In this document: piece by piece, positions 50,084 through 53,260 of the stretch
How positions within the stretch are numbered: the first letter of the stretch is position 1
How the letters are laid out: each line of letters starts with the position of its first letter
From: SAR202 cluster bacterium
GTDB lineage: Bacteria; Chloroflexota; Dehalococcoidia; Lucifugimonadales; UBA3495
Direction of reading: 5' to 3'
NCBI GenBank assembly: GCA_016872385.1
Contig: VGZV01000005.1
Location: forward strand, 6,578-70,577
DNA: 64,000 nt
The notes under the pieces: generated by a model
The model's input: the letters and a program-made list of their open reading frames with translations, nothing else
Databases searched by the model: none
What the model was told of the DNA's origin: nothing
Position numbers and translations under genes: made by a program

Positions 50084-53000
50084 TTACCGCCAGCCCTCAA
50101 AGCTGGGGCGGCCGAACCGTTCTTCTTCTATGACCAGTTTGTTCCGCAAGTAGGAGTAGGCCTTGGCCGACAAAAACTCGATTTCCCAGGGCTTTAGCTG
50201 CTCCACAATGCTGGATGCTTTGTGCGGGCTGCCGTTGGCGTCTACCCCGCCGGTTTCCGCGGCAGGAATGGGACCATCCACGTAAGACCGGCGCAACGGC
50301 TGACGCGCCTGGGGCGCAGCGCCCGGCAGGGCCGGTGGAACTGGAGTCTGGTTTGATGAATGGAGACTGTGCCCGCCAACCTGGGGCAATCGCCGGACGA
50401 CAGGCGGCGCGGCGGGTGGCTGGGATGCAAGATGGTTTTCCGGACTGGACATATGGGGCATTAGCGATGGCGGCAAGGGCAGCCCACCGCTGACAGGGCC
50501 TTGTAAAGGACTTGCCGGTAAGCCAAGCCGGGAACTTTCACTGGCGCGGTTACTGGCCATGCCAGCGTTGTCCCGCAGCCTGGGGCGGTTACCCGAAACA
50601 ATCCTGCCCAGGGGAGAATTGGCAACGGCAGAGACGCGGCGGGCAATGAGCACCGGCGTGCTAACTCCCCGCCAACCGGCCAGCTCCAGCCTGGGAGTGT
50701 GCGTAGCGCCCTTTCTGGCAATTGCCCATGCCGGACCACCGGGAATGGTCTTTCCCAGTTCCTTGACGCGGATCCGCCTGGTTGCTGGAGCGCTGGCAGC
50801 GCCGGGGCTGCCGGAAATTTCCTGCGCAGCTTTATCCAGGACCGGGGACTCCATCCCTACGGAAAAGCCGGAGACCAAAGCCTCTCTTGCTTTCTGCACC
50901 GGCAAGGAGGCGGAAAGGGGCAGTTCTGCCCCCGGCAATCCTGCGGGCCTTCTGGCAACAACCGCCTCACCTCCCATCATTTTCCCAGATGCACCAGTAG
51001 AGTCCTGTACCGGCGCAAAAGCATTTAGCGAGGCAGCAGCGCCCGCAGAACTATTTTCACCTGTTCCAGGCGTCCTCAGCCGGGGCTGCCAACGGGCGCG
51101 GTCTACCTGGAGTTCAACGCTCCGGGCGGCGCTGCCTGAGACCAGGTCCAGGAGTGACCGATGAACAACTATCCCGCCTTGGCCCAGCGCAGGAACAAAG
51201 GATTCCTTGCCGGTAACCCGCGGCAAGGCAAAGGTTCGCTGGATGGGCTGCCCCTTGCCCCCGCGCTGCCCTGGGGCTGTAGGACGGCTGGCAGCAGCTA
51301 GGTCATGACGATGCGCTGGTCTTACTACAGCGCCTCTGTTACCGGATTGGGGCAGGCCGTCACGCCGCGAGTAAGAATGCAGACCCTCAACTTCTGTAGC
51401 AAGGAGAGGCACGTCCGATCCGTCCTGGACAGAGTGGGACTGGAGGTGTGGCCCTGCTCCGGCCTGCGTGGATGGGACGGCAGCAAGGGCGCCTCCTGTT
51501 GCTTCCACCCGGCGGAGTTGGGGCACCCATTGGACAGTGTCTACCCAAGACTGTCCAGCAGTCCCAGCACTGTTGCTTAGGAGTTTCCCAATATGCTGCC
51601 GCTGCAACGCGAACGTCGTAGGGAAGCGCCTAATAACCCCAGCAGAAATTTCTTCATTGATCTGCCCATCAGCCCCTTCTTTCATCTGCCCGAACTTGAT
51701 GGAGGAAGGCTGGCGGCGCCACAAAGGCGATGGGGTAGCTGAACCAGGGCCGCCGTCGGCCGAAAAATGATGACTTGGTTGTCCCTTGCCACCGCCAGCC
51801 CGGGAGTGATCCAGTGATTCCCGAAGAATTTGGCTGCCCAAGCCTGCAGTATTTCTAGAATACCTGCCAGCCAAGGGAAACAACCTGTTCCGGCGGCCAG
51901 CTACTTTGGATTCACCAGGGCCGGCAGTATCCCGGCGGGCGGTTGCTCCAGCATCTCCTGGAAACTTCAAAGAGGAATTCAGAGCGGGCCGATTATCCTG
52001 GCCCAGCCGCCTTCCTCCGGAAACTTGCTGGGAGGTCCCCTCGGCCCCTCTTGCGTTACCCGTCCTGCGCGGCAACAACTGGTTTCTTGCTCCAGCGCTG
52101 AGGATTGATTTCGCAGCGCTCCCTTTAACTTCATGAACCTTAGGAAGAGCCACATCCTGCCCCGCCGCAAGACCCTGACGCACCGCACCTTGAGTCTCAC
52201 CAGACCAAGCTTCAGCATCTCCTGGCAAGTACCTGGGTACGGACGGCAGATGGGACGCTGGAGTAAACAGTGACCCGGGGAATGCTCCGGCTTCTTGGGC
52301 AACACTCCGGGGCCTTAGTCGGTATTGTGCCTGGGCGGCTCCTTGCCCCAGCGAACCCAGGGCGTTGCTGGTAGCCCAGCGGGTGTTCCGCTGCTGAATG
52401 CGCCGCGCTATCGCCATAACAGCCAGGGGTATGCGCCCAACAGCAGAAGTAACCCTCTGTAATCCGGCTTGCTGGCCCCCACGTATTCTGATGCCCAATG
52501 TCAGTCCGCCAGCTTCCGCCGTATGCCTCCCCAAAGTGAAGCGGGCGCTCTTTGGCGCAGCATTTGCGGCTGCCCCGTTCTCACCAACCGGAGCGACTAA
52601 TTTAGAGGCTCTTCTTGCGGAAGAAGGGCTGTCCCATGATGCCCCTGCGCGGCGGCCGTAGCGCAGCTGTGGCGAACTACCTTGGCCCGGCACGGATGAT
52701 TGCGCGGGGTTGCCCACGGAGGGCAGCAGCGAATCCTCAGCGTACCTTGACAGCGCCGGTCTGGCGGCAAGCCCGCGCGAGTCCCGCACCTGGGCAAACA
52801 AATTGGACAAGCCCGCAGCCAAAGCGCCTGCTGGGCGGCCAATGTTCCTTGTGGCGTTGCTCCTAGCGCCGGAACGCCAGAGCCTGCGTCGCAGCGGGCT
52901 GGGGTGGCGTTCTGACTGCACTGTGCCGCCCTCAACCACCCGGTTTGCACCACTTCCGGCAACCCGTGTTTCGGACTCATGGCTCCAGCCTGCGCCGCCG

Positions 53001-53260
53001 GCATTGCTGGCCGTCCGGTTGTTTATATCCCAGCCCGCCACTGCCAGTAGCAACGGTGTGCCAGCCCGCGCTCTCCAACCGGGCTTCCAATGCCCCACCG
53101 GCGGACGGCGCGCTACTCCGCGGCCGGTCCAGATACGCAGTCCGTCGGTCCGCTGCACCTTACCCAGCACTCTCCGGAACATGGGCAGGGAACCGGCTCT
53201 AGTTTGGCCCAAGACACCAAGGCCTGGTTTAAAACGCTTTATGTTTCCAAGTTGCAACAC
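50084..53260 (-). CDS. 1058-aa Ala/Gly/Arg/Ser/Pro-rich low-complexity protein; candidate tape-measure/lumen protein with plug-like C-terminal helix
   Basis: Single long ORF filling the gap between tube 2 and LysM; C-terminus IEFLSAKAYSYLRNKLVIEEERFG. Role inferred from position. Confidence 0.6.
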   Translation of the reverse strand: MLQLGNIKRFKPGLGVLGQTRAGSLPMFRRVLGKVQRTDGLRIWTGRGVARRPPVGHWKPGWRARAGTPLLLAVAGWDINNRTASNAGGAGWSHESETRVAGSGANRVVEGGTVQSERHPSPLRRRLWRSGARSNATRNIGRPAGALAAGLSNLFAQVRDSRGLAARPALSRYAEDSLLPSVGNPAQSSVPGQGSSPQLRYGRRAGASWDSPSSARRASKLVAPVGENGAAANAAPKSARFTLGRHTAEAGGLTLGIRIRGGQQAGLQRVTSAVGRIPLAVMAIARRIQQRNTRWATSNALGSLGQGAAQAQYRLRPRSVAQEAGAFPGSLFTPASHLPSVPRYLPGDAEAWSGETQGAVRQGLAAGQDVALPKVHEVKGSAAKSILSAGARNQLLPRRTGNARGAEGTSQQVSGGRRLGQDNRPALNSSLKFPGDAGATARRDTAGPGESKVAGRRNRLFPLAGRYSRNTAGLGSQILRESLDHSRAGGGKGQPSHHFSADGGPGSATPSPLWRRQPSSIKFGQMKEGADGQINEEISAGVIRRFPTTFALQRQHIGKLLSNSAGTAGQSWVDTVQWVPQLRRVEATGGALAAVPSTQAGAGPHLQSHSVQDGSDVPLLATEVEGLHSYSRRDGLPQSGNRGAVVRPAHRHDLAAASRPTAPGQRGGKGQPIQRTFALPRVTGKESFVPALGQGGIVVHRSLLDLVSGSAARSVELQVDRARWQPRLRTPGTGENSSAGAAASLNAFAPVQDSTGASGKMMGGEAVVARRPAGLPGAELPLSASLPVQKAREALVSGFSVGMESPVLDKAAQEISGSPGAASAPATRRIRVKELGKTIPGGPAWAIARKGATHTPRLELAGWRGVSTPVLIARRVSAVANSPLGRIVSGNRPRLRDNAGMASNRASESSRLGLPASPLQGPVSGGLPLPPSLMPHMSSPENHLASQPPAAPPVVRRLPQVGGHSLHSSNQTPVPPALPGAAPQARQPLRRSYVDGPIPAAETGGVDANGSPHKASSIVEQLKPWEIEFLSAKAYSYLRNKLVIEEERFGRPSFEGWR

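Follow-up and report, generated by a model that had tools for sequence, protein, structure and literature searches.

Introduction

In AlgoCIS, an extracellular contractile injection system (eCIS), particle length is set by a tape measure, at 0.229 nm per residue (bioRxiv 10.64898/2026.05.27.728243). Homologues of the tape-measure gene afp14 and the plug gene afp6 are 'generally absent' from lineage II of these systems (PMC6899500), and a haloarchaeal system is likewise without cis6 and cis14 (PMC11566945). Streptomyces contractile injection systems (CISs) are uniform in length, at ~230-295 nm, with the tape-measure gene absent (PMC10066040, PMC10020575, PMC12237407); the 268-nm Streptomyces CIS, itself of uniform length, has no known tape-measure gene (PMC12237407, PMC10066040). 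Here we describe a 1058-amino-acid (aa) open reading frame (ORF) from a SAR202 cluster bacterium (Chloroflexota) that is a candidate for such a protein. It lies in a 64,000-nucleotide stretch of contig VGZV01000005.1, the whole of which is referred to below as the window.

Three further described systems bear on the comparison. The small protein Alg6 nucleates assembly, its C-terminal helix forming a trimer inside the spike cavity, and the lumens of CIS tubes are negatively charged (PMC8894135). In Streptomyces davawensis the slot upstream of the initiator and spike genes encodes Tme, which is ~70% disordered and has been characterised as an effector (PMC11126660). Sle2 binds the tape-measure-like cargo Sle1 via DUF4157 (PMC13277306).

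We propose that the 1058-aa ORF is the gene for the tape-measure-slot protein in a CIS of lineage-II type (the Streptomyces kind, without afp14 and afp6), and that the protein acts as a hub-anchored, disordered tape measure or scaffold threaded through the tube lumen; we put the probability of this reading at about 0.62. The reading is drawn from the position of the gene, the chaperone-like gene upstream of it, a conserved C-terminus encoded beside the hub genes, and a labile length.

A long ORF in a predicted tape-measure slot

Judged by its gene content, the minus-strand operon that surrounds the ORF is a contractile injection system. From sheath to spike, in order of transcription, it comprises:

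55207-56772, minus strand: sheath
54403-54843, minus strand: tube 1
54026..54406, minus strand: 126-aa tail-assembly-chaperone-like protein (PHROG 508) with a C-terminal CxxC, presumed chaperone of the 1058-aa ORF
53841..53993, minus strand: 50-aa DUF6760 small protein
53268..53747, minus strand: tube protein 2 (gp19-like; PF06841, E 2e-42)
50084..53260, minus strand: tape-measure-slot ORF, 1058 aa, GTG start, uninterrupted, stop codon 50084-50086
49341..50063, minus strand: tube initiator (CIS_tube + LysM; PF19266, 1e-29), presumed docking partner of the C-terminal module
47491..49320, minus strand: VgrG-like spike (PF04717, PF05954)

In phage P2 the corresponding genes run in the order FI, FII, E, T, U, D. 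The series sheath, tube, chaperone-like gene, DUF6760, tube 2, ORF, gpU-like initiator and VgrG mirrors this order, and the ORF therefore falls in the tape-measure slot, the position of P2 gpT; as an assignment from gene order we regard this as well supported. The initiator also matches LysM (2e-6) and, weakly, Phage_P2_GpU (0.0026). The 126-aa protein matches PHROG 508, 'tail assembly chaperone', with modest scores (E 7.5e-5, and 6.4e-6 for its orthologue in locus L005) and has no Pfam match; its gene is conserved in syntenic loci. Phage tail chaperones coat tape measures. The synteny of the window recurs in L005, L007, L023, L024, L025, L026 and L019. A preliminary description of the locus had reported an Ala/Gly/Arg/Ser/Pro-rich ORF between tube 2 and LysM and no separate tape-measure gene, and both statements hold: the window operon contains no other tape-measure candidate, and the ORF itself occupies the slot.

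The ORF is a real gene. From the ~0.03 stops per codon expected at 61% GC, simple arithmetic gives a chance of P ~1e-14 for 1058 open codons, and the ORF list for 50084-53260 contains no overlapping rival longer than 201 aa. Its junctions are tight: 7 nt separate the tube-2 stop from the GTG, and 20 nt lie between the stop of the ORF and the LysM gene, whose start is preceded by a Shine-Dalgarno-like GGGGG/GAGGG site. The start is uncertain by 16 codons, a later one being chosen by some gene callers (P0002), and the sole other known copy differs at the first residue alone, from a different start-codon call. GC content at the third codon position (GC3) is 0.60, against 0.67-0.77 in the neighbouring genes, and at the second (GC2) 0.60 against 0.40-0.50. 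The same pattern marks the slot genes of all GC-rich loci examined, GC2 there (0.55-0.77) being higher, and GC3 lower, than in neighbouring genes; such flattened codon-position GC could mislead gene finders. Taken whole, the protein has no match in 40 close-relative genomes, nor does the ORF match anything in Pfam, NCBIfam, PHROGs or PDB sequences; two pattern scans of genome contigs gave 63 pattern matches each, of which none was confirmed.

A conserved C-terminal module

Near the end of the protein stands IEFLSAKAYSYLRNKLVIEEERFG, followed by RPSFEGWR. A HMMER (phmmer) search with the window protein alone against 1.84 billion representative proteins returned eight others (E 1e-5 to 6.5e-4), all of them matching within residues ~970-1058, and further homologues were added by profile search. 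Homology is limited to the last ~40-90 residues, and the body of the window protein has no detectable relatives. The conserved part is:

50087..50191, minus strand: conserved C-terminal module, residues 1024-1058 (alignments A1, A4, A5)

The module consists of a helix (residues 1024-1049, window 50114-50191) and the tail GRPSFEGWR. Its consensus, at the extreme C-terminus, is W-E-I-E-F-L-[AS]-x-K-V-Y-S-Y-x-K-x-K-L-x-x-E-x-E-R-H-G-R-P-G-F-x-x-W (A1, A4). A commoner variant, found in a search of 401 genomes, reads D-L-D-x-L-A-R-Q-V-Y-x-x-L-K-x-R-L-A-V-E-R-E-R-L-G and likewise ends long ORFs ahead of LysM and VgrG. Given a 20-sequence alignment of the last 110 residues, AlphaFold2 predicts one helix, 1024-1049, with a predicted local distance difference test score (pLDDT) of 85-95. 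The first half of this helix is hydrophobic and the second half charged. It is not classed here as amphipathic, its hydrophobic moment being not above that of shuffled sequences.

The preliminary description had called this helix plug-like. The helix is indeed conserved, directly before the initiator and spike genes; the resemblance to a plug did not emerge from sequence comparison. The module profile found nothing relevant in Pfam or among all PDB chain sequences at E<=10, and a PDB-wide profile search, in a set for which the presence of the modelled AlgoCIS Alg6 chain was not confirmed, gave no similarity to Alg6, Afp6 or JF50_12690. Word-index searches with the C-termini of the window protein and of L023 recovered the queries alone. 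At the N-terminus there is no convincing conservation across the family beyond one close-relative pair.

We defined the family by the module (D[LI][DE]xLAxx[VI]YxxL[KR]xRLxxExERxG or WEIEFLxxKVYSY), adjacency to CIS_tube and a Pro/Gly-rich body; the window protein has all three. In all homologues with recoverable context the module ends a long low-complexity ORF directly upstream of the LysM initiator and VgrG. Such ORFs precede the initiator in L002, L003 and L006, and also in:

L004: slot ORF, at least 622 aa
L007: slot ORF, 1222 aa, between tube 2 and LysM
L005, 5650-11116: slot gene, 1174 + 676 aa in two overlapping frames

L005 is a metagenomic locus, and its split reflects a frameshift or else a mistake in a contig of 6x coverage; joined, the frames would encode ~1820 aa. 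In L006 (1-4831) a ~60-residue peptide repeat that includes …RVRRLASGARRLILREPAGPGKSGAFETRPP… occurs on both strands, ~3x on the minus and 1x on the plus. Either the assembly is chimeric or the duplication is inverted; the minus strand is the one that the gene caller annotated.

The extent of the family in the phylum was gauged in the sample of 401 genomes with the combined profile A5 (E<=0.01); because A5 includes the window sequence, the score of the window itself is circular. Module matches occur in 52 of the 401 genomes, some of the weaker ones not adjoining an initiator gene. Seen from the initiator, the adjacency is near-obligate: the 401 genomes contain 52 strong CIS_tube initiator genes, and for 44 of these the module lies shortly upstream on the same strand (median distance 90 nt). 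The spacing falls into two classes, ~90 nt and ~510 nt, and in the latter the gap is probably filled by tube 2, by analogy with Streptomyces, where tube 2 stands between the slot gene and LysM.

Searches of plasmids (tblastn) place the module in two further phyla, each slot protein being encoded after tube 2. On the Brasilonema plasmid pBOCT2 it ends an 1177-aa Ser/Thr/Pro/Gln-rich repeat protein; on a Deinococcus psychrotolerans plasmid it ends an 1831-aa protein with an eCIS_core (DUF4157) domain at residues 1559-1634. The Deinococcus operon (L020, 9078-11740) stops right after this DUF4157/slot fusion gene; an SDR gene and an IS982 transposase come next, with neither an initiator nor a spike gene after them. 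The family that ends in the module is widespread and, in the literature searched, undescribed.

A disordered body of labile length

The body of the window protein is low in secondary structure. Pro or Gly occurs on average every 3.8 residues, and there are just three Pro/Gly-free runs of at least 14 residues (279-301, 710-725, 1025-1049). In a full-length, single-sequence AlphaFold2 model mean pLDDT is 33.5 and helices cover ~9% of residues (147-158, 265-302, 355-365, 1032-1048). With Pro or Gly so frequent and so few helices predicted, the body cannot be a continuous helix. These results bear out the disorder expected in the preliminary description. So does the composition (A13 G13 R10 S10 L9 P8 %) its basic character: R+K number 137 against 65 D+E, for a net charge of +72. 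The charge is a property of the window protein and is not conserved, ranging across the family from -5.6 to +6.9 per 100 aa. Body composition tracks the host genome, being rich in A/G/R/P where this is GC-rich and in S/T/P/Q/N in a cyanobacterium.

Length is equally labile. Slot proteins range from ~600 to ~1850 aa, and several homologues show recent duplication of segments, with 97% identity over 92 aa in L005, 49% over 78 aa in L007, and units of ~100 aa in Brasilonema. The window protein has no internal repeats above shuffled controls. Given the disorder, the drifting composition and the labile length, the body therefore appears to be selected to stay open, long and unfolded rather than for any particular sequence.

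Short motifs in the slot family and in DUF4157 cargo

Two short motifs recur in the window protein; expectations were obtained from 5000 composition-preserving shuffles of its 1058 residues. [VIL]QR occurs at residues 35, 267, 552 and 673 (4 observed vs 0.99 expected, p~0.02) and [VI]ARR at residues 49, 284, 768 and 872 (4 vs 0.14, p<0.0002). VIRR at 542 and VVRR at 954 are related forms, and the general pattern h-x-R-R (h, hydrophobic) is found 10 times where 2.3 are expected. All the copies of [VIL]QR and of [VI]ARR/VVRR reported earlier are thus present. The plain QR dipeptide is at chance (6 vs 5.6). The sites are:

53150..53158, minus strand: VQR, residues 35-37 (motif scan)
53105..53116, minus strand: VARR, residues 49-52 (motif scan)
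52355..52468, minus strand: longest internal predicted helical stretch, residues 265-302, with LQR (267) and IARR (284); low confidence, pLDDT ~50
51599..51637, minus strand: VIRR (542) + LQR (552) (motif scan)
51236..51244, minus strand: IQR, residues 673-675 (motif scan)
50948..50959, minus strand: VARR, residues 768-771 (motif scan)
50636..50647, minus strand: IARR, residues 872-875 (motif scan)
50390..50401, minus strand: VVRR, residues 954-957 (motif scan)
50279..50296, minus strand: LRRSYV, residues 989-994, last h-x-R-x motif (alignment A4, columns ~330-335)

LRRSYV aligns with VSRS, IRRV, VQRI, IHRA, ISRQ and IQRL of homologues, at a similar distance before the helix. Motif gaps in the window protein are 82-285 residues, and with 4 [VIL]QR and 6 related sites it is motif-sparse. 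Its p-values are post hoc, and the real test of the motif lies in the relatives.

Taken as a pattern fixed beforehand, [VIL]QR occurs 123 times among 32 further, independent members from the phylum, where 13.7 are expected (z~30). Individually, 15 of the 32 are enriched (p<=0.01) and have between 3 and 14 copies apiece; the other 17 are not, and 9 of these are without any copy. In L025 there are 17 copies where 0.3 are expected. Every sequenced member of the ~510-nt spacing class (L061-L068) is rich in the motif. Two proteins of Streptomyces plasmid CISs also carry it in excess (7 vs 0.3 and 20 vs 0.5): a 1020-aa hypothetical protein of Streptomyces sp. NBC_01324 and a 1381-aa ORF of S. clavuligerus, unannotated in the table used. 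Both are encoded between DUF6760 and tube 2. The motif is credible at the level of the family, not from the window protein alone. Pooled, its context is P-x-P-[AS]-[VIL]-Q-R-x-[AT]-x-G, extended rather than helical. The gaps between copies, typically 40-100 residues with a coefficient of variation of 0.3-0.8, are loose and non-periodic.

The same tripeptide marks cargo of the system:

39438..40949, minus strand: DUF4157 (eCIS_core) cargo, leader with six PLQR

The preliminary description had counted five PLQR; there are five PLQRVEEDEELQMK units, and PLQRAVG brings the total to six. Its proposal that a hydrophobic-QR (hQR) motif is common to slot protein and cargo is upheld, since DUF4157 proteins of five genomes have hQR upstream of the domain (GNQAVQRLL, PLQRVEEDEE…, DIQREAESS…). 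Past the tripeptide the window ORF and the DUF4157 cargo show no similarity (E=1). Both loci whose cargo has 14-residue hQR-acidic repeats (the window and G071) also have hQR-enriched slot proteins; with n=2, this co-occurrence is suggestive at best.

Proposed mechanism and alternatives

The mechanism we propose begins at the hub, formed by the products of the next two genes (initiator and VgrG). The C-terminal ~35 residues, helix plus GRPxF..W tail, would dock there between tube initiator and spike, probably as a trimer. The ~1000-residue disordered chain would be held by the upstream chaperone-like protein and then be enclosed by the growing tube, so that, on this proposal, the length of the chain would set or limit that of the tube. 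Extrapolated at the AlgoCIS value per residue, 1058 residues would correspond to ~240 nm. [VIL]QR and [VI]xRR would be linear binding motifs, shared with the DUF4157 cargo leaders and probably read by a common partner, for which the chaperone, a DUF4157 domain, the AAA+ loader and the acidic tube lumen are candidates. More speculatively, and we think it doubtful, a single disordered protein may do three jobs in lineage II. Its C-terminal helix would then be spike plug and assembly nucleus, its chain length the ruler for uniform ~230-300 nm particles, and its [VIL]QR copies docking sites read by one partner, with cargo strung along the ruler and the load scaling with motif number.

Several points weigh against a lumen-threading tape measure. 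The protein has no homology to Afp14, Pvc14, Alg14, gp29 or phage tape-measure families (Pfam, NCBIfam, PHROGs, PDB, E<=10), and the 'central region almost exclusively alpha-helical' that characterises Afp14-type tape measures is not found in it. The full-length AlphaFold2 model was made without an alignment, and its low confidence is weak evidence alone. In the two Streptomyces proteins the C-termini, …DLDRLARRLVAPLSRLLRAELRGDRERVGR, line up with the module where expected, with non-significant scores of 4-5 bits, because of which the Streptomyces link is one of position, composition and motif, not of proven homology. A 2.5- to 3-fold range of slot-protein length within one phylum would imply very different particle lengths. 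Finally, the window system is known here from its genes, not from particles, expression or interactions.

Among the alternatives, the protein could be lumen cargo or a cargo scaffold, a DUF4157-less relative of Tme that is packed and ejected while tube length is set otherwise. Tme, a disordered effector encoded in the same slot (PMC11126660), is the obvious precedent, and Sle1, bound by Sle2 via DUF4157, is a tape-measure-like cargo (PMC13277306); the DUF4157 domain of the Deinococcus slot protein and the hQR motifs common to slot proteins and cargo leaders point the same way. The window protein, however, matches no enzymatic, toxin, transmembrane or DUF4157 domain in domain searches, its sole conserved part is a hub-adjacent C-terminal helix rather than an effector domain, its body drifts in sequence and charge as that of an effector would not, and a chaperone-like gene is conserved upstream. 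We consider this explanation unlikely; the two roles are compatible, phage tape measures being ejected too. Less probable again is the model of the preliminary description, in which a tape measure is fused to an Afp6/Cis6-type plug and hydrophobic-QR motifs make periodic lumen contacts common to all loaded proteins. In its favour, neither afp6 nor afp14 is present in lineage II (PMC6899500); the plug Alg6 is a trimer that places its C-terminal helix in the spike cavity, and CIS lumens are negative (PMC8894135) where the window protein is strongly basic; the helix of the window protein is confidently predicted and conserved, and hQR is present in both the cargo and the ORF. Yet no resemblance of the module to Alg6, or to any chain in the PDB, was detected, and for want of sequence similarity to plug-position proteins the fused plug is an analogy with Alg6.

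Neither the spacing of the motif nor its distribution across the family supports the periodic contacts of that model. Motif spacing is irregular, both in the window protein and across the family; more than half of the relatives (17/32) are not individually enriched. Since part of the family (9/32) is without the motif, hQR is not a universal tube-lumen contact, and net charge changes sign between members. The Pro/Ala-flanked context, P-x-[VIL]-Q-R-x-A, is typical of a peptide-in-groove ligand, not of a repeated structural contact. As for a spurious ORF in GC-rich DNA, or a real gene on the other strand, atypical codon-position GC, the lack of domain matches and a gene caller that took the opposite strand in the related contig L006 could be read that way. 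Against these stand the improbability of so long an open frame with no competitor, the tight operon junctions, a GC pattern shared by all family members, and a C-terminus and synteny conserved across phyla; because of this conservation the explanation is effectively refuted, and its probability is negligible. A hub-anchored, disordered tape measure or scaffold remains the reading we prefer.

Other genes of the operon

The remaining genes of the operon are:

57868-60144, minus strand: AAA+ ATPase
56910-57746, minus strand: Pvc16-type cap
46256-46549, minus strand: PAAR
45839-46252, minus strand: gp25
43777-45834, minus strand: baseplate J
42880-43461, minus strand: P2-I/Cis12-like
41659-42852, minus strand: Cis13-like

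Between VgrG and PAAR lies a further ORF of 183 aa (46871-47422, minus strand), an insertion that the syntenic locus L005 does not have. Over residues 19-117 it shares homology with the N-terminal leader of the DUF4157 cargo (35-139; 33% identity, E 3e-7), including ..LQRLYGNRYV.. and VIQR, and it is probably a second small cargo with the same leader.

The DUF6760 ORF (53841-53993) directly follows the chaperone-like gene, and the pair is kept in every syntenic locus examined, including that on a Streptomyces plasmid. The DUF6760 protein may correspond to the extension that phage tail chaperones acquire by frameshift, or may be a small subunit in its own right. In L024 (G259 C109 33909-34139) and L026 (G251 C158 5204-5440) a DUF4157 gene stands between DUF6760 and tube 2, adjoining the slot gene; the window has no gene at this position.

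Significance

With the slot family there is now a concrete candidate for the length determinant that lineage-II injection systems had seemed to lack. Its easily recognised C-terminal module, encoded beside the initiator gene, singles out a putative ruler that can be altered in tractable Streptomyces. What would be new relative to known tape measures is the disordered, Pro/Gly-rich body without homology to any of them. Should the protein prove to be a ruler, length would be measured by a disordered chain and not by a helical rod, which would change the view of how it is read out; engineered injection systems would also gain a simple means of adjusting how long the particles are and how much cargo they take. 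The [VIL]QR motif, in turn, ties the slot protein to the DUF4157 cargo leaders.

Comparison with known systems

Like P2 gpT, T4 gp29 and Afp14/Pvc14/Alg14, the window ORF is the largest of its tail module. As in P2, it follows the tube and chaperone genes and directly precedes the tube initiator and spike, whereas in Afp/Pvc loci the tape-measure gene is found elsewhere, after the fibre genes. With phage and eCIS tape measures the slot family shares a length that varies through internal duplication and, for the window protein, a C-terminus presumed to lie at the hub. It differs from them in that its body is Pro/Gly-rich and disordered where theirs has an alpha-helical centre, and in that only the ~35 C-terminal residues are conserved.

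Like the Alg6/Afp6 (Cis6) plug, the window protein has a short C-terminal alpha-helix, which would, on the plug analogy, lie in the tube-facing spike cavity and be essential to nucleate assembly; Alg6 is a small stand-alone protein, while the window module is the end of a long ORF. Cargo loading sequences (Cgo1/Cgo2, Pdp1/Pnf), which direct proteins into the lumen, are disordered and system-specific, as the window protein is (bioRxiv 10.64898/2026.05.27.728243, PMC11495950). They comprise tens of N-terminal residues on a folded effector, whereas the window protein has ~1000 disordered residues and its conserved element at the C-terminus. At the window locus the [VIL]QR tripeptide of the slot protein recurs in the cargo leaders.

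The closest protein described so far is Tme (BN159_7576), which is encoded in the same slot of the same CIS lineage and is likewise disordered and the largest ORF of its cluster. In Tme, DUF4157 stands at the N-terminus and an endonuclease domain at the C-terminus, and there are also transmembrane helices and coiled coils. All of these are lacking in the window protein, whose end is a short helix. Specifically, the window protein gives no eCIS_core match at E<=10 and no other domain match, and its model contains no long helix except the low-confidence 265-302, no dedicated transmembrane predictor having been run. Between the two stands the Deinococcus member, whose DUF4157 domain bridges the architectures of Tme and of the window protein.

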